Notes: generated from the letters alone by a model not told the origin. A stretch of DNA of 60,773 nt from an uncultured Candidatus Saccharibacteria bacterium (GCA_964598205.1 CAZRBB010000006.1:1-60773); one strand, 5' to 3'; counted from the first letter of the stretch, positions 25,678 to 46,299 are shown. Made by a program: numbers and translations.

Positions 25678-27024
25678 TTAGTTGTTCACTTCTCTTCCTA
25701 GGCCTACATAATTAAAGCCGGCCTGCTTTACTGTTTCTGAATTAAAGAAATTGCGAAGGTCTAAAACTATTCTACCTTTTTTTCCGGCACTCAGCTTTTC
25801 CCAATTTAATTCGGCGTATTCTGGCCAATCGGTTAAGAGCACTAAGACATCGGCTTCTTTAGCTGCCGCGTAGATTTCTAGGGAATCTGTTAAATATTCC
25901 ACTTCTTCTGGCAGAATTTTTTTAGCTTCCTTGGTTCCTTGGGGATCGTGAGCTAAAACACGGGCGCCTTTTTCTGTTAGGGCGGGAATAATAGTTATAG
26001 CCGAAGCGTCGCGCATGTCGTCGGTATTGGCTTTAAAAGTTAGTCCTAAAAATAAAATTGTTTTTCCAGAAATATCATAACCTAGCGCGCGTTTAATCTT
26101 TTTTACCATCCGCGCTTTTTGAGCAATATTGACTTCGGAAACCGCTTCTAAGATTCGTAACGGAGTTTCGTTTTCTTGAGCCACCCGCAAAAGCGCCGTA
26201 ACATCTTTAGGAAAGCAAGAGCCACCGTAACCAGGACCGGTTTTTAAAAACGCCGAACCAATTCTTTTGTCCATTCCCATACCACGCGCCAAGTCTAAGA
26301 CATCGGCATCTAGTCTTTCACAAAGATTGGCCATTTCGTTAATAAAGCTGATCTTGGTGGCCAAAAAAGCATTAGAGGCATATTTAATTAGTTCCGCTGT
26401 TTTGATTCCAGTTACCAGAAGAAAAGCGCCGTCTTCTTCTAGCGGTCGGTAAATTTGCCGCAAAACCTTTTCGGCTTTTTGGGAATCTACTCCTAAAACC
26501 ACGCGATCGGGATGTAAAAAATCGTCTATCGCTTCTCCTTCCCGCAAAAATTCAGGATTAGAAGCCACGCTAAAATTAGCTTGGGGATTATTTTCTTTGA
26601 TTATTCTTTTTACTTCGTTGGCTGTACCCACTGGCACAGTTGATTTATCTACCACAACTTTATAACTGGTAAGCAGTGGCGCCAATTCTCTGGCTACTTG
26701 GTAAACAAAAGACAAGTCAGCATAACCATCACCACGACGACTAGACGGCGTTCCCACGGCAATAAAAACCGCTTGGGAATCCTTAACCGCTTCTGTTAAG
26801 TCACTAGAAAAAGAAAGTCGCCCTAATCCACTGTTTTTAAAAACCAACTCGCCAAGTCCTGGTTCAAAAATTGGGATTTCGCCTTTTTTTAAGCGGTCAA
26901 TTTTTTCTTGATCTTTATCCACACAAACCACTTGATGGCCTTTTTCTGCCAAACAGGCACCTGTTACCAAGCCGACATAGCCGGAACCAATAACACATAT
27001 TTTTTTAACTGTTTCTTTTAACAT
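25678..27024 (-). CDS. ugd: UDP-glucose 6-dehydrogenase
   Basis: VIGSGYVGL, KSTVPVGT, SNPEFLREG, GYGGSCFPKD, FKANTDDMRD. Confidence 0.96.
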   Translation of the reverse strand: MLKETVKKICVIGSGYVGLVTGACLAEKGHQVVCVDKDQEKIDRLKKGEIPIFEPGLGELVFKNSGLGRLSFSSDLTEAVKDSQAVFIAVGTPSSRRGDGYADLSFVYQVARELAPLLTSYKVVVDKSTVPVGTANEVKRIIKENNPQANFSVASNPEFLREGEAIDDFLHPDRVVLGVDSQKAEKVLRQIYRPLEEDGAFLLVTGIKTAELIKYASNAFLATKISFINEMANLCERLDADVLDLARGMGMDKRIGSAFLKTGPGYGGSCFPKDVTALLRVAQENETPLRILEAVSEVNIAQKARMVKKIKRALGYDISGKTILFLGLTFKANTDDMRDASAITIIPALTEKGARVLAHDPQGTKEAKKILPEEVEYLTDSLEIYAAAKEADVLVLLTDWPEYAELNWEKLSAGKKGRIVLDLRNFFNSETVKQAGFNYVGLGREVNN

Positions 27025-27067
27025 AGCGGTTTGAATGATTATTTTTTGAAAGTTCCGATCATGTTTT

Positions 27068-27248
27068 TATTTTCCCAGAACCAATGTTCTTTGAGGAGGC
27101 TCCTTGTTCCCGCTTAGAGAGACCAGAGGAGTATTCACTCAGTAGACAAGGCTCTTAGTCTACTGAGTGAATACTCCTCTGGTCTCTCTAGAGCCTTAAG
27201 GTCGAGGCCGAGCGTACTGGGAGAAGAACATTGGTTTGAGGGAAAATA
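27068..27248. repeat. Structured intergenic element, copy A (closing stem, conserved scaffold, 33-bp perfect hairpin)
   Basis: CCAATGTTCT 27081-90 / AGAACATTGG 27225-34; hairpin arms 27115-47 and 27158-90; scaffold shared with 33769-33995. Confidence 0.9.
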
Positions 27249-27263
27249 GAAAAATTATTCTGT

Positions 27264-28328
27264 CTATCCAAAAATCATCTTTTTAAAGTCAGCCCGGTAT
27301 TTTTTAAAAAAACCATTAAATTCTTGATTAGAAATTTTCCGGTTTTTTTGGATTTGCCACCGTTTTTTTAACATTCGGGGAAGGTGCTTTAAAACACTAC
27401 CCCAGGCGGAAACTGCTATCCAAGCCGTTTTAGGACCGCCACTTTTTTTAGATAACTCAAAAGATGGTCCTTTGCCTAAAAGAACACTAACTAAAAGCAT
27501 TATATAACGGAAAGGAAGAATCAAAAAACCTAAAAATAAAAATGGCAGGGGGAAATCTTTTAAAAGTACAAAAATTTGATTGCGGTAAACATGGAAACTT
27601 TTAAAAGGAGAGAATGATTTACCCGTGGCTGAATGGGCGTGATAGCCAACTGCTTGGGGCACATAAAATGCAGAAAAACCTAAAAGCCGACTCCGGTAAT
27701 TAAGATCCAAGTCTTCGTAGTAAGCAAAAAAGTCTTCGTCAAAATAACAATCGTCGCCTTCTTTGTTTTGGTAAGCGGTTTTTTGAAGCATCTCTCTTTT
27801 ATATAAAACCGCCGCTCCACAGGCACCAAATATTTCTACGGTTTTATTGTACTGACCTTGATCTTCTTCCTTGAATCCTTTTTCCATTCCGCTCCCGTCC
27901 CTGCCAATCAAGGTTCCCACGGTATTAATAATTTGCGAATCGCTTTGAAATAAAAGCTTAGCTCCCAACAATCCCCAGTGGATATTTTTTTGGCTGTAGT
28001 TTGCTGCGGCTTGAGTAAGAGCACTGAAATATCCCGGAGCTAAAACAATGTCGTTATTCAAGGAGCAAACATACTTTACGCTTTTTTCTTTTAAGGCAAC
28101 TCTGATTCCCACATTCATACCACCAGCAAAGCCTAAGTTTTTAGGCAGAGAAATTACTTGTGTTTGGGGAAAAAATCGTTTAATCATCTTTGCCGAACCG
28201 TCGGTAGAACCGTTATCTACCACAATTACTTTTAGGTTAGGAAAGTTTTGGGAATAAACAGAAACCAAGCAGGCTTTAAGCCGCTTTTTGCCATTGTAAT
28301 TAGGAATCACTAAAGCTAGTTCAAACAT
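27264..28328 (-). CDS. GT2 glycosyltransferase (WbbL-like)
   Basis: VDNGSTDGS, NLGFAGGMN, LNND, CGAAVLYK, FFAYYEDLDL. Confidence 0.92.
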   Translation of the reverse strand: MFELALVIPNYNGKKRLKACLVSVYSQNFPNLKVIVVDNGSTDGSAKMIKRFFPQTQVISLPKNLGFAGGMNVGIRVALKEKSVKYVCSLNNDIVLAPGYFSALTQAAANYSQKNIHWGLLGAKLLFQSDSQIINTVGTLIGRDGSGMEKGFKEEDQGQYNKTVEIFGACGAAVLYKREMLQKTAYQNKEGDDCYFDEDFFAYYEDLDLNYRSRLLGFSAFYVPQAVGYHAHSATGKSFSPFKSFHVYRNQIFVLLKDFPLPFLFLGFLILPFRYIMLLVSVLLGKGPSFELSKKSGGPKTAWIAVSAWGSVLKHLPRMLKKRWQIQKNRKISNQEFNGFFKKYRADFKKMIFG

Positions 28329-28394
28329 AGATCTTTAATAGTTAGAATATTTCCGCCAAACTGAAATTTTACATAGCTCCTGGGGAGATTCGTT

Positions 28395-28541
28395 TTTTCT
28401 GTAAGGGTTTTCTTTGGAGAGGCTTTTAGATCCGAGCGGGCCGGTTTTTCTCGAAGAGAAAAGAGCGAGGATCTAAACTTGAGCAAGCGGTCCCGCTGGG
28501 CGGAGTGCTGCGTGCTCTCAAAAGGAAACCCTGACAGAAAA
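28395..28541. repeat. Structured intergenic element C (27-bp closing stem, 24/27 match; nested hairpins)
   Basis: TTTTCTGTAAGGGTTTTCTTTGGAGAG vs CTCTCAAAAGGAAACCCTGACAGAAAA; inner TTTAGATCC/GGATCTAAA and TTTTCTC/GAGAAAA. Confidence 0.8.
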
Positions 28542-28559
28542 GGTAAGCACAACTCTAGC

Positions 28560-28635
28560 TAGACTGGCTATCAAAGACTTGCGTAGGCAGACTCAGAGCC
28601 TTGTCTGCCCAAGCAAGTCTTTGATAGCCAGTCTA
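28560..28635. repeat. Long hairpin D (23-bp perfect arm plus 7-bp tip stem, loop TCAGAGCCTT)
   Basis: Arms 28560-82 / 28613-35; tip is the reverse complement of AGAC-AAGGCTCTGA-GTCT. Confidence 0.9.
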
Positions 28636-28644
28636 ATAGATCAA

Positions 28645-29769
28645 TCACACCATTAGTTCCAAATACCGTTTGGCAATGTTTGCTATGTAAAAACGGCGAA
28701 CGGCTTCTTGATTATTGCTGCCGAACTCCTTTAACTTTTCCCTGTTTTTATAGAAAAAGTCAAAGGCTGAGAGAAAAGAATCCAAATTACTTGGAGAAAA
28801 AAAGCAGGCATTGCGATCTTTTTTTAAGAAATAGGTTTGACCGCCCCGATTAGTAGAAATAATGGGCAATCCAGCCGCCATAGCTTCTAAAAAAACTATG
28901 CCAAAACCTTCGTGCCAAGAAGCCATGGTAAAAAGATCGGCCTTTTTTAAGGCAGTGTATTTTTCTTCTTCGGTTACTCGGCCCAAAAAAGAAACGGAAG
29001 CGCCCATGTTCTTGGCTTTTTCTTTTAGTTCTTTTCTTAGCGGTCCTTCTCCTACCACTACCAGTTCTGCTTTTTCTTTGAGCTTGGAAATAGCTTCTAT
29101 TAAAAATAGAATATTTTTTCTTTCCACTAAGCGACCAACAGTAATTAGCCGTAGCGGTTCGGATGAGTCTTGGTTGGGGACCGAAACAGAAATTTTAAAA
29201 GGGGGCTTGAATCCCAAGGGAATAATCGTGACTTTCTTTTTGGTAGAATAAAATTTTTCTAATTGCGAACGAATTTCTTTGGTAGAAGCAATTACCCAAT
29301 CTGCTTTGTTAACCGCCAATTCTATTATCTTTCTAGTAATCCAAAGCCGGTGACCAGACATTTTCCTGGTAGGGTCGTAAATATCGGCACCATGTAATAC
29401 CAAAATATTTTTTTTACTAAAAATAAGCTGAAGTAAAAAACCGATTGGTCCGGCTGGTAATGCAAAGTGAGTTACTAAATAGTCGGGCTGGGTTTTTTGG
29501 CAAGATTTAATTCCCGCCACTAGTCCCTTTGCTAAAAACAAAAATAAATTGCCAATACTCGCCAGGGAGCGATCGTTTCTTTGGCCACAAAAAACGCGAT
29601 GCACCAAAACTCCTCTTTCTTTTTTCTTTAGGTGTTTTGGGTCAGTCCCAGAAGTAATCACCTCTACCGAATGCCCTTCTTTGGCCCATTCTTCTGCTAA
29701 GTCGCGAGCAAACACGGCTCCGCCACCACCCAATGGCGGATACTCGTGGTTTAAAACTAGAATTTTCAT
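28645..29769 (-). CDS. GT4 glycosyltransferase
   Basis: NHEYPPLGGGG, GRLVERKN, EGFGIVFLEAMAAGLP. Confidence 0.93.
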   Translation of the reverse strand: MKILVLNHEYPPLGGGGAVFARDLAEEWAKEGHSVEVITSGTDPKHLKKKERGVLVHRVFCGQRNDRSLASIGNLFLFLAKGLVAGIKSCQKTQPDYLVTHFALPAGPIGFLLQLIFSKKNILVLHGADIYDPTRKMSGHRLWITRKIIELAVNKADWVIASTKEIRSQLEKFYSTKKKVTIIPLGFKPPFKISVSVPNQDSSEPLRLITVGRLVERKNILFLIEAISKLKEKAELVVVGEGPLRKELKEKAKNMGASVSFLGRVTEEEKYTALKKADLFTMASWHEGFGIVFLEAMAAGLPIISTNRGGQTYFLKKDRNACFFSPSNLDSFLSAFDFFYKNREKLKEFGSNNQEAVRRFYIANIAKRYLELMV

Positions 29770-30878
29770 TTTAAAATTCTTAAGCCCAGGTAAATCTTTT
29801 TGGGATCCTTGGAATCAATTGCCAACGATTCAAAAGCATATTTGGTTTTGAATTCCTCTGCCTGCCAAGTTACTCCGGCATCAAAACTGTGATAAAAAGC
29901 TCCGGCCGCACCAAAATAAAGAATTTCTGAATTCTCACCACCAATCGCTAAGCTTCTAATGGTTGGTGTTTTTTTTAGGGACCCTTCCAATGTTGGAATC
30001 TCTTTCCAAGTTTCACCACCATCTTCGCTACGCAAAAGCCCACCTTCCCCGGCCAAGTAAATCACTTTTCCTTTTTTAGGATCAGCTTTTAATTCCATTA
30101 TTCCTTTAGCCGAAATTTTAGAAGGAATTTTTGATTTTAAATCTACAATCTTGACTCCATTTAACAGCTTATTCTTTGATTTTTCTTCTACCACCTCTCT
30201 CCTTCTATCTTTAACATTGCCAGAATAATCAATTTTATAAACTCCTTTTTCAAAAACTAAAAGATAAGTATCGCGAGTTTCTTGGGAATCTAAGGCGATT
30301 TTAATTATTGGACCATCTAACTCTCCAATATTTTCCCAGCTTCTTCCTTGGTCTGGGCTTTTTAAAAGCGTTCCGCGAGAACTGCCTGCGTAAAGGGTGT
30401 CTGGGTTGTAAGAATCAATTTCTAAGGAAGCAATTACAGAAGATCCTGCCGGTTCAGCATAAATATCTTCCCAATTAGCCCCACCATCGTTGGATTTTTT
30501 TATTTTTCCTTGATTATCAAAAACACCCGCAACGAACAACCGTTTGTTGTCTCGGGGATCTATCACTAAACCGTAAATTCTTTTTCCTGGAATCAGATTC
30601 CGCCATTTTGTTCCGGCGTCTTCGGAAAAAAACAGTCCGTTCGCTTCTGTTCCAGCATAAACCCTGGCAGAATCATTGGGATCAACTTTTAATACCAAAA
30701 TACTTTCTTTAGATAGATTCTTTTTTTCATCTATTGCCGAGCGAGAAGAAAACGATTCTCCGTTATTATCTGAGAAAAAAATTCCGGCTTTTTTAGAAGC
30801 AAGCAAGGTTACACTAGGAAAAGAGCAGCCCGTAAGGAAAAGAGTTAAAAAAGCTGAAGTTAAAAAAAATCGATTCAT
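29766..30878 (-). CDS. BNR/VPS10-repeat beta-propeller protein, putative lipoprotein
   Basis: Repeated SxDxGxxW (SDNNGESF, SEDAGTKW, SNDGGANW, SPDQGRSW, SEDGGETW, SFDAGVTW); LTGC lipobox-like site. Confidence 0.85.
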   Translation of the reverse strand: MNRFFLTSAFLTLFLTGCSFPSVTLLASKKAGIFFSDNNGESFSSRSAIDEKKNLSKESILVLKVDPNDSARVYAGTEANGLFFSEDAGTKWRNLIPGKRIYGLVIDPRDNKRLFVAGVFDNQGKIKKSNDGGANWEDIYAEPAGSSVIASLEIDSYNPDTLYAGSSRGTLLKSPDQGRSWENIGELDGPIIKIALDSQETRDTYLLVFEKGVYKIDYSGNVKDRRREVVEEKSKNKLLNGVKIVDLKSKIPSKISAKGIMELKADPKKGKVIYLAGEGGLLRSEDGGETWKEIPTLEGSLKKTPTIRSLAIGGENSEILYFGAAGAFYHSFDAGVTWQAEEFKTKYAFESLAIDSKDPKKIYLGLRILK

Positions 30879-30898
30879 ATAAAAAATTAAAAATAAGA

Positions 30899-31681
30899 TT
30901 AAAGAAAAATACTTTCTAGTGCCAAGCGTAAAGAAAGTCCCTCTCTATTTCTGGTTTTCTTTTTCAACGCTAAAAGTTCTTCTGTTAGTGCTTTTTCCTT
31001 TTTTAAGTCACCACTTTTTTTGGTTTTTTCTTCTAATTCGGTTGCTAAAAATTCAATCCAAAAATTAAGGCGTTGGGGAAAATTTTCACCATCTTTGGCA
31101 ATTTTTTCTATCAGTTTGATCTTTTTGTAAAAAGGATTGGCTAGTAAAAAAGAAAGCTCTTCTTTCCATTTTTGGGTATTTTCCAAAAAAGAAGTGGGGG
31201 CGTTTTCTTTTTGCGTACCAAGACCAAACCGCAAAATTGCACTCCTGGAACGAATAGTTGGCAAAAGATGTTCTTCTGACTCCACTAGTAAAATAAAAAC
31301 GCCGCTGCGCTTGGGTTCTTCCAAACTCTTTAGTAGGGCGTTCTGGGCAGTCAATGTTAAGCGACCAGCTTCTTCTATTAAACAAATAGAGTAAGCGGCA
31401 GCTCCAGAAGAAAGGCTCATTGAAGACAGCGCTTCTTTAACTTGCTTGGTGGAAATTTGTTTTTTCCTAACAACGCCTTTAGTTTTCTTTTCTAGAGGGG
31501 TCACTCGTGTTACGCCAATCCAAAAAACATCTTTCTTATCTCCCAAAAGAAAGCGAATAAAATTTTCTGCCATGGCGTGTTTCCCTGTTCCGTTTCTCCC
31601 AGAAAAGATATAGCTCCCACGGGCTTTTTTTTGGGTAGCTAATTTTTTTAAAAAATTTTCTTTACCTTTTAATGTTCGCAT
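30899..31681 (-). CDS. holB: DNA polymerase III delta-prime (short form)
   Basis: YIFSGRNGTGK, AQNALLKSLEEP, LLPTIRSRS. Confidence 0.85.
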   Translation of the reverse strand: MRTLKGKENFLKKLATQKKARGSYIFSGRNGTGKHAMAENFIRFLLGDKKDVFWIGVTRVTPLEKKTKGVVRKKQISTKQVKEALSSMSLSSGAAAYSICLIEEAGRLTLTAQNALLKSLEEPKRSGVFILLVESEEHLLPTIRSRSAILRFGLGTQKENAPTSFLENTQKWKEELSFLLANPFYKKIKLIEKIAKDGENFPQRLNFWIEFLATELEEKTKKSGDLKKEKALTEELLALKKKTRNREGLSLRLALESIFL

Positions 31682-32838
31682 TTGTTTTTTAAGCAGTATT
31701 CCTTGCTCAATTGCTCTATTTCTTTTTTTATTGCTACTTCAAAACGGGAACGGGAAAAATTGTCTGCCAGCGCCATGATTGCTTGGGGATTGTAAGATTG
31801 CCGTGCTTTTTCTAGGCGGTAAGCTCCTTCGGCTAAACATTCCACCGCCGGAGATGAAAAAAATTCTCCAGATTCTCCTTCTTTTACCGTTTCTGTAGCC
31901 CCGCCGGCCTTAAGCGCTAAAACCGGTTTTCCTAAAGCCATGGCCTCTACTGCCGCAATTCCAAAATCTTCTTCTCCTGGGAGAATTAGGCCTTTGCATA
32001 ACGCGTAATAGCGGGCAAGTTCCTTTCTTGTTAAAAAACCTAAAAACTTTACTGTTGGCCCAGCTAGGCGTTTTAGTTTTTTTTCTTCGGGACCTTCTCC
32101 AATAATTATCAGTTTCCAGCCCAACTTGTTAAAAGCTTCTATTGCAATATCTATTTTTTTATAAGATGACAAGCGAGAAACAATCAAATAATAATCGCCA
32201 GTTTTTTGTTTTAAAAAAGGGGCCGCTAAGGTTCTTAGTTCTTCCGTTTCCACTGGTGGATAAATTACCGAAGCGTCTCTGTGATAATATTTTTTTATCT
32301 TTTCCTTGGTGGCATTGGAATTAGCAATAAAATAATCTACTCGCTCCGAAGAAGCAAAATCCCAAATCCGTAAATGATTCAGAACTAAACGAGTTCCCAG
32401 CCCCATTATTCGACCCAAAGCCAATTCTCTTAAATATTCGTGGGTATAATCCCAAACAAAGCGCATGGGACTGTGGCAATAACAAATGTTCACTGTTTCT
32501 GGTTTGGTGATTACTCCCTTGGAAAAAGCGCCAGAAGAAGAAAGGACTACTCCAAAATCGCGTAGATCAAAAGTCTCTACCGCTGAAGATAAAAACGGCA
32601 AAAGCATCTTCTTTCTTTTTTTAAAGAATCGAGGCCACTTTTGGAGGAAAGAATTTTTGATTTCGTTTTTAAGAGAAAGCGATTTTATAACATTTTTTTG
32701 GGAAAGAAGGGTATGGATTGGTGCTTGGGGAAAAACGCTGGCCAAGGATTGAAGGGTCATTTCTGCCCCGCCTACCGCTGTTAGGTAATCGTGAACTAGA
32801 GCGATTTTAAAATCAGAATTGACTAAATGCTTTTCCAT
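31669..32838 (-). CDS. GT4 glycosyltransferase (WbaZ/RfbU-like)
   Basis: VHDYLTAVGGAE, YCHSPMRFVWD, EEDFGIAAVEAMALGKPV. Confidence 0.93.
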   Translation of the reverse strand: MEKHLVNSDFKIALVHDYLTAVGGAEMTLQSLASVFPQAPIHTLLSQKNVIKSLSLKNEIKNSFLQKWPRFFKKRKKMLLPFLSSAVETFDLRDFGVVLSSSGAFSKGVITKPETVNICYCHSPMRFVWDYTHEYLRELALGRIMGLGTRLVLNHLRIWDFASSERVDYFIANSNATKEKIKKYYHRDASVIYPPVETEELRTLAAPFLKQKTGDYYLIVSRLSSYKKIDIAIEAFNKLGWKLIIIGEGPEEKKLKRLAGPTVKFLGFLTRKELARYYALCKGLILPGEEDFGIAAVEAMALGKPVLALKAGGATETVKEGESGEFFSSPAVECLAEGAYRLEKARQSYNPQAIMALADNFSRSRFEVAIKKEIEQLSKEYCLKNKCEH

Positions 32839-32843
32839 AATAT

Positions 32844-33707
32844 TTATTTTGATTGAACAAAACCACCGGGAAATTTAATCTTTTTGTCTGAGAATGCCCT
32901 GGCAATGCGTTGTGCCAGTTCTCTTTTTACTTTTAATTTTTTTCCAAAAATAACTTTTCCACGCACCTTTACTACCGCTGATGTTTCGTTAATTTCTTCT
33001 ACTCCCAGCGAGTGGGCTGCTTCTAGAAAATCAGCCGAAAAATCGGGATCGTCTTTTAAATCTTTACCTACTTTATCTATAATTTTATTGATTTTGCCAA
33101 AGTTAGTATCTACTTTTACTGGAATATTTAGTGTTACTACGCTGGCGCGACTGGTAAAATTAGTAACTATTTTTATTTCTCCATTGGGAATAATGTGGCG
33201 CGCACCAGAAACATTTCTTAACACTGTTCTTCTTAAATTAAGGCCAACCACTCGCCCCTTAAAATCACCTACTTTAATCCAATCGCCTTCGTTGAATTGG
33301 CTTTCTAAAACAATAAAGATTCCAGAAATAACATCTTTTACCAAGCTTTGCGCCCCAAAACCAACAGCCAAACTAATAATTCCCGCACTCGCTAAAACCG
33401 GTACTGCATTAAAACCTAATTCTCCAAAAATAAAAAGCAAAGATCCGGTAGTAATAAAGACCAGAGAAGTCGCTTCTATTACTCCAGCTAGAGTTTTATT
33501 TCTTTTTTCTAAAGATTCTCTTTTTATGGTGTTGGTGGGCAAAGAGCGACGCCAAAAAACACTAGCTATTTTTACAAAAGCTGGTGCCAAAAGCTGAACA
33601 GCAATCTGGGCCAAAGGTGCCAAAAGAATTACAATTAATACCCGCCAGCCACTGTGCCAAGCGGAATCCCAAACACCAAGGGCAATGCTCCAAAAAGAAT
33701 TTTCCAT
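32844..33707 (-). CDS. mscS: Small-conductance mechanosensitive channel family protein
   Basis: LAVGFGAQSLVKDVISGIFI, GDWIKV, LRRTVLR, IIPNGEI. Confidence 0.9.
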   Translation of the reverse strand: MENSFWSIALGVWDSAWHSGWRVLIVILLAPLAQIAVQLLAPAFVKIASVFWRRSLPTNTIKRESLEKRNKTLAGVIEATSLVFITTGSLLFIFGELGFNAVPVLASAGIISLAVGFGAQSLVKDVISGIFIVLESQFNEGDWIKVGDFKGRVVGLNLRRTVLRNVSGARHIIPNGEIKIVTNFTSRASVVTLNIPVKVDTNFGKINKIIDKVGKDLKDDPDFSADFLEAAHSLGVEEINETSAVVKVRGKVIFGKKLKVKRELAQRIARAFSDKKIKFPGGFVQSK

Positions 33708-33768
33708 TTAAAAAAATTATTCTTTTTGATTATAGCACAATAAGTCAATTTCTAATGAGTAGTTTTAC

Positions 33769-33995
33769 CATCTTCTCTAGCCAATGTCCTTTGAGGAGGC
33801 TCTTTGATCCCGTCAACAGAAAGAGATTAGAGGAATAACTGTTTCAAACAGAAACAACTCAATTCTGTTTGAAACAGTTATTCCTCTAATCTCTAAAGCC
33901 TTAAGCTTTTTAGGCAAAGCGCGACAGGAGCAAAGTTGAGCGAGGCCCGGTCGAGGCCGAGCGTACTGGGAGAAGGACATTGGCTAGAGAAGATG
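33769..33995. repeat. Structured intergenic element, copy B (22-bp perfect closing stem, 32-bp perfect hairpin)
   Basis: 33769-90 / 33974-95; hairpin 33822-53 / 33863-94; shares TTTGAGGAGGCTC, AGCCTTAAG and GGTCGAGGCCGAGCGTACTGGGAGAAG with copy A. Confidence 0.9.
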
Positions 33996-34028
33996 ATCGC
34001 AATTACTAATCTAATATTCAAAATTGAA

Positions 34029-35831
34029 CTAGCCTCTGCTTCCTCCTCTTTTGGATCTGACCCGATCTTTTTCGGAGAGATATTTTTTGCGCAAACGAAC
34101 ATTTAAGGGGGTAATTTCTAAATATTCATCGGCGGCCATTATTTCTAAGCCTCTTTCTATTGTTAGGTTCATTGGTGGAATAAGTTCAATGGCGTCGTCG
34201 GAAGAAGAAGCGCGAGTGTTGGTTAATTGCTTGCCTTTGGTAGGATTGACGGCGATATCTTCTCCCTTAGAAGTGTTGCCAATAACCATTCCTTCGTAAA
34301 CTTGAATACCAGCACCAATATAAAGCACTCCCCGATTCTGTAAATTGTCTAGTGCAAATCCTAGGGCTTTACCATTGGCCATAGAGACCATGGAACCAGT
34401 TTCTTTTTTCTTGATTTCTCCTGCGTAAGGACGAAACTCCAAGAAACGACTAGACAGAATTCCTTCTCCTCGAGTGTCTACAATGAATTGACCGCGGTAA
34501 CCCAAGAGTCCTCTGGTTGGTGTTTCAAAAACCAAACGGACCAAGCCATTTACTTGCTTCATCTGAGTCATAAGGCCTTTTCTTTTCCCCATTTTTTCTA
34601 TGATCGCTCCTGAATATTCCTGAGGAATATCTACAAAAACTTCTTCAAAAGGTTCAAATTTTTTACCGTTTTCTTCTTTAATAATTACCCGCGGTTGTGA
34701 TACCTGGATTTCGTAACCTTCTCGACGCATGTTTTCTAAAAAGACAGCAATGTGCAATTCTCCTCGGCCGGAAACAGCGTAAGAGTCACTAGAAGACAAG
34801 TCTATTTTTAAACCAACATTAACCTCTAATTCTTTGGTTAACCGTTCTCTAATTTGAAGATTAGTTACAAATTTTCCTTCACGACCACCAAATGGCGAAT
34901 CATTTACTAAAAAATTTACAGTAACTGTTGGTTGATCGATTTTAATATCTGGTAGGGCCTCCGTTTCTGGAGAATCGCAAATGGTGTGGCCAATGTAAAC
35001 ATCGGGTAGTCCGGCCAACATCACAATATCGCCAGAAAAAACTTCGGCCACTTCTTGTCTTTCTATTCCGTGAAAAGTAAATAACTTAATAAGTTTTCCC
35101 TTGCTGGCGGAGCCGTCTGGTTTTTTAACAAAAACAGGACTTCCAGTTTTAATTGATCCTTGGTAAACCCTGGCAATTGCTAATCTTCCCAAAAAATTAT
35201 CGTAAGCTAAGTTAAAGGGCTGGATTTTTAGGGGAAGTTGATCGTCTTCTACTCCCTTAGAGGCAGGCGCAACTTCTTTTAGGATTGTGTCTAAAAGAGG
35301 CGAAAGGTCCGTTGACTCATTTTCCATTTCTAGTTTAGCAAATCCTTCTTTGGCGTTGGTGTAAACTGTAGTGAAATTTAATTGTTCGTCGTTGGCACCA
35401 AGATCCAAGAATAGTTCGTAGACCATCTCTACTACTTCTTTTGGTCGTGCCGCTGGCTTGTCTATTTTGTTTAAAACCACCACTGGCAAAAGTCCTAGCT
35501 CTAGTGATTTTTTTAACACAAAACGAGTTTGGGGCATTGGTCCTTCTTGAGCGTCTACTACTAACACTACGGAATCAATGGCGCGTAATACTCGTTCTAC
35601 TTCCGAACCAAAATCGGCGTGACCAGGCGTATCTACAATGTTGATTTTAGTGTCCCGATAATTTAAGGAAGCGTTTTTGGAATAAATAGTGATTCCTCTT
35701 TCCTGTTCCAAGGTGTTGCTATCCATGGAAGATTCATCTGTAACCATTCCCGTTTGCCGCATTAAGGCATCGGTTAGGGTAGTCTTTCCGTGGTCCACAT
35801 GGGCAATAATTGCGATGTTTCTAATTTCCAT
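34029..35831 (-). CDS. typA: Translational GTPase TypA/BipA
   Basis: RNIAIIAHVDHGKTTL, ERGITI, DTPGHADF, GRGELH, LEITPLNVRLRK. Confidence 0.98.
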   Translation of the reverse strand: MEIRNIAIIAHVDHGKTTLTDALMRQTGMVTDESSMDSNTLEQERGITIYSKNASLNYRDTKINIVDTPGHADFGSEVERVLRAIDSVVLVVDAQEGPMPQTRFVLKKSLELGLLPVVVLNKIDKPAARPKEVVEMVYELFLDLGANDEQLNFTTVYTNAKEGFAKLEMENESTDLSPLLDTILKEVAPASKGVEDDQLPLKIQPFNLAYDNFLGRLAIARVYQGSIKTGSPVFVKKPDGSASKGKLIKLFTFHGIERQEVAEVFSGDIVMLAGLPDVYIGHTICDSPETEALPDIKIDQPTVTVNFLVNDSPFGGREGKFVTNLQIRERLTKELEVNVGLKIDLSSSDSYAVSGRGELHIAVFLENMRREGYEIQVSQPRVIIKEENGKKFEPFEEVFVDIPQEYSGAIIEKMGKRKGLMTQMKQVNGLVRLVFETPTRGLLGYRGQFIVDTRGEGILSSRFLEFRPYAGEIKKKETGSMVSMANGKALGFALDNLQNRGVLYIGAGIQVYEGMVIGNTSKGEDIAVNPTKGKQLTNTRASSSDDAIELIPPMNLTIERGLEIMAADEYLEITPLNVRLRKKYLSEKDRVRSKRGGSRG

Positions 35832-36098: not shown

Positions 36099-36305
36099 CT
36101 ACCCTGTATCCGACCAAATAAAAGAATCTCCTAAGAGAAAAGGGGGATTCGGACAACTCGCCTCGCTCGTTCCATAGGGCTTCCGCCCTCTGGCGCTCCC
36201 CGCCTCAACGGCGGGTCGCTGTCACCCCCAACGGGGAAAATCCTTTTCCCCGACCCCTTTTTAGTCCGACTCTACCCTGTATCCGACCAAATAAAAGAAT
36301 CTCCT
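36099..36305. repeat. 34-bp perfect direct repeat (36099-36132; 36272-36305) flanking a GC-rich insert downstream of tRNA-Ala
   Basis: CTACCCTGTATCCGACCAAATAAAAGAATCTCCT x2; insert carries 13 bp (36142-54) identical to the tRNA T-arm (36336-48). Confidence 0.9.
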
Positions 36306-36324
36306 TTTAGGAGATTCTTTTATT

Positions 36325-36400
36325 TGGTGGACTCTGGGGGATTCGGACCCCCGGCCTCCTCGGTGCAAGCGAGGCGCTCTACCAACTGAGCTAAGAGCCC
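36325..36400 (-). tRNA. tRNA-Ala(UGC), CCA encoded
   Basis: GGGCTCT acceptor with G3:U70, anticodon arm CCTCG-CTTGCAC-CGAGG, T-loop TCCGAAT. Confidence 0.96.
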
Positions 36401-46227: not shown

Positions 46228-46299
46228 AAAGCATAGCTGGTAGTTTCTTTTGCCAGACAAGGCTCTGAGTCTGCCCAAAGAAACTACCAGCTATGCTTT
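46228..46299. repeat. Long hairpin E (23-bp perfect arm; apex CAGAC-AAGGCTCTGA-GTCTG)
   Basis: Arms 46228-50 / 46277-99. Confidence 0.9.

Follow-up and report, generated by a model that had tools for sequence, protein, structure and literature searches.

Descriptions of small palindromic repeats come chiefly from proteobacteria, with a few further cultured groups besides, and to our knowledge most families of these repeats are without a proven mobilizing enzyme. The closest described systems are the enterobacterial intergenic repeats ERIC/IRU and RU-1/2/3 (reviewed in PMC3184786 and PMC2759123), the REPIN/REP-BIME elements with their RAYT (Bertels and Rainey, 2011; PMC3116915), miniature inverted-repeat transposable elements (MITEs) such as Correia/NEMIS, and the NTS/SRM hairpin repeats, which are recognized by the Ssn GIY-YIG nucleases of single-stranded DNA (ssDNA) (Chenal et al., 2025; PMC11893778). 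Presented here is a repeat family with two conspicuous copies, A and B, in a stretch of 60,773 nt (GCA_964598205.1, CAZRBB010000006.1:1-60773) catalogued under an uncultured Candidatus Saccharibacteria bacterium. This stretch, hereafter the window, is contig C6 of a genome of 1,006,342 bp (37% GC, 99.5% complete), the host of which is, going by its protein names, a Moranbacteria-like member of the Patescibacteria. Copies A and B are probably lineage-specific, nested, non-coding and non-autonomous hairpin repeats, in other words parasitic or selfish DNA comparable in kind to ERIC, REPIN and MITE elements. The family is new and somewhat odd, although of a familiar selfish-DNA kind, and it is not a demonstrated RNA gene.

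Census and anatomy of the family

The first-pass annotation of the window had described a modular element in two copies, in which a conserved scaffold carries an interchangeable perfect hairpin. The sequence blocks shared by A and B were all found where they had been placed, and each copy does contain a perfect hairpin, with arms of 33 bp in A and 32 bp in B. The count of two was too low, as a third member is located between them and about 49 loci exist in the genome. The 5' motif occurs 33 times in the genome versus none for a reversed control, nhmmer detected ~42 loci of family A, to which both copies belong, and a covariance model of family A (R1) gave 38 matches. The remaining seven loci belong to a divergent subfamily, A'. 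All family loci are intergenic and both strands are used. A covariance model of the genomic copies had been among the checks proposed in the annotation.

The canonical unit has no hairpin, measures ~156 nt and consists of a GC-rich branched core and a closing stem. Among 31 near-complete copies, 18 are of this hairpin-less form (~156 nt), eight carry a hairpin of a type named H2, four a hairpin of type 2 and one a different hairpin pair. We aligned 17 hairpin-less family-A copies and analyzed them with RNAalifold and pair counts; the core (~110 nt) is asymmetric and GC-rich and folds as a three-way junction. The closing stem (P1, 23 bp) leads through a GA/AG-type internal loop to P2 (GGAG/CUCC), P3 pairs GCUCC and UUGUUCC with GGAACAA and GGAGC and encloses a loop of 41 nt, and P4 reads GGCC-CGGUCGA-GGCC. 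Pairing is present in 93.7% of cells, compared with 82.8% in column shuffles and 41-51% with slid partners, and 26 pairs have changed on both sides, none of 500 shuffles reaching any of these measures. The closing stem ranges from 21 to 33 bp and differs in sequence among copies with its pairing kept. Measured directly, P1 spans 21-28 bp in most copies (median ~23) and is 94% Watson-Crick (585/624 pairs). The T/C versus A/G co-variation noted earlier between the closing stems of A and B is real and represents one instance of this family-wide covariation. Two other suggested pairings found no support in the alignment: for AGGCT/AGCCT, the AGCCT side varies without compensation and GGCT is near-invariant (2 of 17 aligned copies differ), while for the putative TCCCG/TGGGA pseudoknot, TCCCG does not change in step with the alternation between CTGGGA (~11 copies) and CTCCGA (the rest). 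The same CC-to-GG variant of CTCCGA breaks P2 in the ~11 copies that have it. On the plus strand of the element, G.T pairs outnumber A.C pairs by 31 to 11 (raw binomial p ~0.003, with copies that are not independent), an excess suggesting that selection acts on one particular folded strand, either as ssDNA or as RNA.

Subfamily A' comprises six full copies and one intermediate copy on contig C3. Its architecture is that of A, with near-invariant junction letters (GAG-GCT, AGC after P3, and GCGTA-CTC), and the window copy is laid out as GAG-GCT, P3, AGC, P4 and GCGT(A/G)-CTC. The sequences of P2, P3 and the inner hairpin differ from those of A and complementarity is kept. Pairing amounts to 98.8% of cells versus 81.7% in shuffles, with 19 pairs changed on both sides and none of 500 shuffles as high. 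A covariance model built from A' (R2) cross-detects family A at ~35 bits.

In copy A, the closing stem pairs TTTTCCC-AG-AACCAATGTTCTT with AAGAACATTGGTT-TGA-GGGAAAA and is followed by the 5' block TGA-GGAG-GCTCCTTGTTCCCGC; after the hairpin, GAGCCTTAAG runs without a gap into GTCGAGGCCGAGCGTACTGGGAGAAG. In copy B, two substitutions distinguish the 5' block from that of A, and after the hairpin come AGCCTTAAG, 44 bases, and a 3' block as in A, which bears the CTGGGA variant. The segment of ~48 nt that had been described as an extra of B does exist, but it is 44 nt long and canonical, and it is A that has lost it. Since nearly all other near-complete copies keep these 44 nt (the one further exception, with the different insert, has lost most of them), B represents the canonical scaffold with a hairpin and A a deletion derivative. 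The R1 score of A (52.6 bits) may be compared with the 110-177 bits of intact copies. When folded as RNA, A and B gave z-scores of -13.1 and -13.4 against shuffles; a DNA fold of the other strand of B gave -12.8.

The copies are unevenly spread, with nine within 40 kb of contig C4 (10-50 kb), 14 on the whole of C4 and a single divergent copy on the 205-kb C3. Several truncated scaffolds end inside a hairpin, and three fragments that retain only the 3' part of the scaffold have a common junction of TTCGTAATTACTTAC with AGGCCCGG. At locus 27 (C4:32382-32602), a short hairpin pair, TGTCATCCTGAGCGAAGCGAAGGATC ... GATTCCTCACTGCGTTCGGAATGACA, occupies the usual insertion site, together with a core deletion of ~35 nt. 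An AT-rich heptamer, ATTCGTA(AT), was also observed 88 times in the genome (78 intergenic), often in short tandem runs. It frequently stands inverted on the two sides of family-A copies as a further outer palindromic layer; examples are located beside family-A loci of contigs C2 and C4 and at C2:150700-150772 and C5:112610-112686.

The nested hairpins

The hairpin elements are 74 nt long with stems of ~32 bp. H2 (loop AAGGCTCTTA, apex GAC-AAGGCTCT[T/G]A-GTC) is present with long stems in 29 copies in the genome and type 2 (loop RCAACTCAA) in seven, many copies of either being outside any scaffold. The stems of H2 contain 884 Watson-Crick, 14 G.T, 7 A.C and 17 other pairs, and those of type 2 contain 212 Watson-Crick and 2 G.T pairs. 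H2 stem length is near-constant (30-34 bp in 24/29); the 15-20 bp closest to the apex are conserved within subfamilies, and the distal ~15 bp vary by copy with a graded, transition-rich homology. The searched genome contains N runs at C2:120512-120611, C2:~178664, C4:~135341 and C5:109883-109982, and the scan of the genome for long perfect hairpins was run without masked N runs. Nearly all perfect hairpins of at least 24 bp turned out to have an H2 or type-2 loop. Among the very few long perfect hairpins with another loop is an AT-rich one of 20 bp (loop TTT) at 36286-36328 in the window, directly after a tRNA gene (36328-36400, minus strand), which may be a terminator.

All hairpin inserts are located at one site of the scaffold, just after CCCGC(C/T)-N. 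In hairpin-less scaffolds this site is the one hypervariable spot of the core, and the sequences found there (AACAGAG, AAAGAGA, TATAAAG) resemble hairpin edges, as footprints would. At locus 13, the nested H2 is inverted whole, its mismatch included, relative to that of locus 14, and we read this as an event at the DNA level. The swappable look of the hairpin is thus that of a second, smaller repeat nested in the first. It had been stated that the hairpins of A and B are unrelated in sequence and nearly equal in length. The near-equal length is confirmed, but the hairpin bases are alike (AGAGACCAGAGGAGTAT in one and AGAGATTAGAGGAATAA in the other) and each hairpin comes from a multi-copy family. 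Similarly, the suggestion of a mobile element with a variable palindrome came close as regards a dispersed non-coding repeat, but not as regards the palindrome, which is a separate nested element and not a module of the scaffold. The features of the window are collected in Table 1.

Table 1. Members of the repeat family, their parts and hairpin elements in the window.
Feature	Position	Strand	Description
Copy A, family A, defective	27070-27246	+	without the 44-nt segment (3' strand of P3 and first half of P4); R1 52.6 bits
Closing stem of copy A	27070-27091 / 27224-27246	+	inner 13 bp perfect, small internal loop, outer 7 bp
Nested H2-type perfect hairpin in copy A	27115-27190	+	33-bp arms, loop AAGGCTCTTA
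Third family member, subfamily A'	28393-28543	+	R2 146 bits; R1 match 28389-28547; own unrelated closing stem
Free-standing H2 hairpin beside the A' copy	28560-28635	-	33-bp arms; minus-strand loop AAGGCTCTGA
Copy B, family A, canonical scaffold (P1 23 bp, P2, P3, P4) with nested hairpin	33769-33995	+	R1 114 bits
Closing stem of copy B, perfect, 23 bp	33769-33791 / 33973-33995	+	
Nested type-2 perfect hairpin in copy B	33822-33894	+	32-bp arms, loop ACAACTCAA
Canonical 44-nt core segment	33906-33949	+	in B and other near-complete copies; deleted in A
Free-standing H2 hairpin	46228-46299	+	31-bp arms, loop AAGGCTCTGA

Distribution, genomic context and candidate enzymes

The family is restricted to the host lineage. 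R1 gave no match in 40 related genomes, nor did R2 in the order outside the host (13 genomes; 14 with the host). GTDB contigs and JGI metagenomes, scanned by pattern, yielded nothing, or chance matches that were rejected by the model. A BLAST search of closing-stem arms and hairpin stems against 50,697 phage records gave no match, nor a second match in the genome itself. A viral or phage origin was considered and rejected, as the IMG/VR matches to the A' pattern are conserved phage coding sequence and those to the A pattern are at chance level and were rejected by R1. In Rfam 15, a scan of the whole window at gathering thresholds returned two tRNAs only, and a scan of 26800-34300 at E<=10 returned far-sub-threshold, miRNA-like noise on the perfect hairpins; no known Rfam family could therefore be assigned to either copy, a check that the first-pass annotation had also proposed. 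In a set of 5.8 billion proteins, the nearest TypA has 77% identity, so that the host lineage has no sampled close relative and orthologous spacers are not comparable with the nearest one. Four other samples hold the same strain and their intergenic sequences are 100% identical. The strain is present in JGI 3300044987 and 3300044984, SRR35365835 and SRR12261224. Independent assemblies of this strain break at hairpin centers; its contigs L070 (end at window position 33851) and L073 (ends at 27161 and 28459) stop either in the A' core or at, or close to, the center of a nested hairpin. Loci of three relatives are without the family and have hairpin families of their own and "empty" palindromes of 19-29 bp after genes. 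Moranbacteria-like contigs with a TypA 75-77% identical contain further foldback families, 120-140 nt in length and GC-rich in the middle (L074:7548-7681, L076:15856-15986, L075:16431-16557), and one foldback family of the relatives is common to two different assemblies with conserved arms (TATCCWTCATGATGCTGTG).

Regarding the neighborhood, the window copies are flanked by housekeeping genes: copy A is established between the genes for UDP-glucose dehydrogenase and a GT2, the A' copy and its H2 between GT2 and GT4, and copy B between MscS and TypA. In the 316-bp spacer between the two glycosyltransferase genes, A' is followed directly by H2, and this spacer is therefore almost wholly made of two elements. 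Over the genome, spacers between divergent genes are enriched in elements (14 observed versus 5.6 expected, chi-square p = 0.0005). In co-directional spacers, the antisense orientation (17) prevails over the sense one (7), and a weak bias exists relative to GC skew, with 26/42 elements opposite to the local skew sign. No T-tract or terminator-like call was made at the window copies A, B and A', and no promoter or terminator signal above chance was found at A and B.

A link to HUH/Y1 transposases, toward which the annotation had pointed, was not borne out: Y1_Tnp (PF01797) has no match in this nearly complete genome, although the same search was positive in 6 of 14 control genomes. TnpB and IS110 genes are absent too, with the DDE transposase families not having been searched. 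No parent insertion sequence with matching ends was found among the nhmmer and covariance-model matches, all of which are short and non-coding, and the sequences on either side of 30 scaffold copies and of 22 hairpins, inspected by eye, showed no recurrent direct repeat that could represent a target-site duplication. The genome encodes two Xer-like tyrosine recombinases and a single reverse transcriptase (C5:88220-88903), which adjoins no element copy and which we take to be of the diversity-generating type from recognized motifs. The surrounding region (C5:88000-93300) includes the IGNLTSQFFANIYLN motif of the reverse transcriptase, a gene for an Avd-like four-helix bundle and, as the putative variable target, a surface protein whose C-terminus resembles a variable region of the C-type-lectin fold, and is probably a diversity-generating retroelement. 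A retron non-coding RNA (msr-msd) was also considered for the repeats, given the closing stem and the long hairpin, and is unlikely with a reverse transcriptase of this presumed type that lies next to no copy.

Explanations and comparison with known systems

In the explanation that we prefer, namely nested selfish repeats, the elements would be copied in a folded single-stranded form, most likely as ssDNA. A trans-acting enzyme would recognize the apex or the core and would need a set stem length rather than a set stem sequence. The 74-nt hairpins would have repeatedly entered or left the hypervariable site in the P3 loop, which would produce the appearance of an "interchangeable" module. Inserted copies would then decay, as A has done in losing its 44 nt, break at their palindromes and swap segments by gene conversion. 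Their arms could be kept perfect through selection during copying, through templated correction of the quasipalindrome type, or through both. Several observations weigh against this explanation. Neither a transposase (Y1, TnpB, IS110) nor a target-site duplication, an empty site or an insertion polymorphism was found, and mobility is inferred from dispersal only, because the four other samples have identical spacers. The conserved unpaired junction letters, the covariation between subfamilies and the G.T bias would also fit a functional RNA. Moreover, the history of the arms does not seem simply to follow that of the cores: three A' cores are 97-99% identical on arms that are unrelated (30-40% identity) and yet 98% paired, loci 25 and 26 agree in 99% of the core and in the whole inner arm (14 bp) but differ in their perfect outer arms, and over all pairs of family A the identities of core and outer arm are uncorrelated (r = -0.07).

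Simple copying of whole hairpins fails to predict this mismatch, and therefore either gene conversion of the cores or rebuilding of the arms at insertion is needed. The outer arms average 0.42 in identity, the cores 0.83. Two observations favor arms that travel with the element: the arms of many copies follow a loose common template (Y-rich...R-rich), and one outer arm, AGCTTTTCTGAAAC, is common to eight family-A copies at different loci and occurs once outside elements, as an isolated chance-like match. Exchange between copies is indicated by several site pairs that show all four character combinations, including the unlikely CC/GG double change, and by copies with chimeric arms, in which mismatched inner arms stand between matched outer arms. 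We favor a scheme in which a hairpin is copied as a whole, its arms change rapidly as long as pairing and length are kept, and ectopic gene conversion homogenizes the cores. Templated quasipalindrome correction has been documented in Escherichia coli (PMC7202029) and, by analogy, could keep arms perfect without selection; alone, it does not account for the excess of G.T over A.C.

Alternatively, arms may be rebuilt at insertion, and two related explanations start from here, both of which we regard as doubtful. According to the one, the closing stem does not descend together with the core, which either enters pre-existing palindromes or makes an inverted target duplication on insertion, so that the unit moved is the core with a short inner arm. 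The near-identical cores on different arms in A' and at loci 25 and 26, the lack of correlation between core and outer arm, and the "empty" palindromes after genes in related genomes all speak for it. However, the outer arm shared by eight copies, the graded homology of the distal H2 stems, which are not unrelated sequences, and the enrichment in divergent spacers, in which a terminator would not be expected, argue against it, and the mosaic cores indicate that gene conversion could have homogenized cores on old, diverged arms. Pre-existing long palindromes were in fact rejected as targets: nearly every perfect hairpin of at least 24 bp has an H2 or type-2 loop, so that the host genome has no reservoir of empty targets, and the shared outer arm occurs just once outside elements. 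According to the other, to be entertained with similar reserve, these are "structure-specified" replicators with an integration chemistry not described before, of which the apex (the 110-nt core or the H2 loop) moves and the helix is rebuilt from local DNA as an inverted target duplication or measured by an enzyme at two to three helical turns from the apex. If true, this would explain at once the cores 97-99% identical on unrelated perfect arms, the fixed stem lengths (~23 and ~32 bp), the nesting of hairpin in hairpin and the lack of the searched transposase families (Y1, TnpB, IS110) in a genome of the Candidate Phyla Radiation (CPR).

The scaffold could also be a structured RNA with a function, present in many copies and serving as a ribozyme, as a small RNA or as a binding partner of protein; P1-P4 would be its fold and the long hairpin an optional expansion segment. 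Near-invariant unpaired junction letters common to A and A' (GAGGCT, AGC, GCGTACTC), the covariation of P1, P2 and P3, which extends between the subfamilies, the 31 G.U-type versus 11 A.C-type pairs on one strand and the constant stem lengths are what such an RNA would show, and we assign to it a small though not negligible probability. It is opposed by the lack of any Rfam match even at E<=10, by the confinement to one genome among all the collections searched, by the many copies with truncations, internal deletions (as in A) or a chimeric make-up, and by the breakage of P2 through the CC-to-GG change. Its copies also stand in either orientation, more often antisense to co-directional neighbors, and A and B lack promoter or terminator signals above chance. 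Host cis-acting signals, be they terminators, mRNA-stabilizing hairpins or ssDNA-nuclease sites that modulate DNA uptake or recombination as NTS/SRM do for Ssn, would suit elements that are strictly intergenic and form very stable hairpins on either strand, and the NTS/Ssn pair offers a precedent for multi-copy hairpins as protein targets on ssDNA (PMC11893778). Nevertheless, no T-tract follows the stems and no terminator-like calls were made at the window copies, divergent and not convergent spacers are enriched, the published SRM consensus matches nothing in the host genome, and the elements are dispensable, because they are absent from every related genome searched; we therefore hold this explanation to be improbable. 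Mobilization of REP/REPIN or IS200/IS605-derived palindromes by an HUH (Y1) transposase agrees with hairpin-forming intergenic repeats and with a wobble bias of one strand, as expected from a single-stranded intermediate. The absence of Y1_Tnp, for which 6 of 14 controls were positive, and of TnpB, together with units of 156-230 nt that have a non-palindromic core and are not REPs of 20-40 bp with a conserved GTAG head, has largely refuted it and leaves it very little credence. For the same reason, with neither TnpA (Y1) nor TnpB in the host genome, IS200/IS605-derived palindromes were rejected as an identity of the repeats.

Apart from their origin, the nested repeats are of interest in that a minimal CPR genome of ~1 Mb, without a Y1, TnpB or IS110 gene (other transposase families not having been searched), holds ~5% of its intergenic DNA in at least four interlocking hairpin families. 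Fixed stem lengths and a wobble bias of one strand are further things that this case adds, and the copying mechanism, if found, might bring to light enzymes of a new class that read hairpins. In practical terms, such palindromes break metagenome assemblies exactly at their centers, and the covariation of such repeats is easily mistaken for evidence of an RNA gene.

In comparison with the known systems, the repeats fall within the ERIC-like class by their behavior, since they are non-coding, occur in many copies and only between genes, fold back on themselves and vary in size through inserts at fixed internal sites. Like ERIC/IRU, they are imperfect palindromes of ~130-230 bp in tens of copies and either orientation, with size variants that arise from blocks at such sites, no transposase of their own and stems kept by compensatory change. 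Unlike ERIC/IRU, with which they have no similarity in sequence or by covariance model, the asymmetric, non-palindromic core is the most conserved part and the arms the least, the internal inserts are independent perfect-hairpin elements, and a single CPR lineage is concerned. With REPIN/REP-BIME they have in common that they are hairpin-forming, non-autonomous intragenomic replicators, mosaic and nested as BIMEs are, with pairing kept and a population of copies that evolves within one genome. They differ in having no RAYT/Y1 gene and no conserved GTAG-type head, in arms that vary around a conserved center, and in being made of a 110-nt asymmetric core with a variable stem, rather than an inverted doublet of short REPs of 20-40 bp. 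The NTS/SRM repeats are also multi-copy intergenic hairpins acting as ssDNA, they provide a precedent for a small enzyme that reads a hairpin of one strand, and a hairpin pair of similar general look stands at the core insertion site of locus 27. However, the stems are ~32 bp here and ~8-12 bp there, no enzyme is linked to the repeats here, and the SRM consensus HGTCWY...RNCYNB (PMC11893778), used as a regular expression, has 0 matches in the host genome and hence none in the core, H2 or type 2. Integron attC sites have conserved R''/R' boxes at the base of the stem and a variable center, the reverse of what is found here, and they were rejected, the copies being on both strands and not in cassette arrays. 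Finally, MITEs of the Correia/NEMIS kind are likewise small dispersed non-coding units between genes with foldable terminal inverted repeats, but the terminal repeats here are not conserved between copies. The repeats therefore behave like selfish DNA of the ERIC, REPIN or MITE type and fail the defining tests of each of these named families, with a pattern of conservation that is inverted relative to MITEs, the center being conserved and the arms free.

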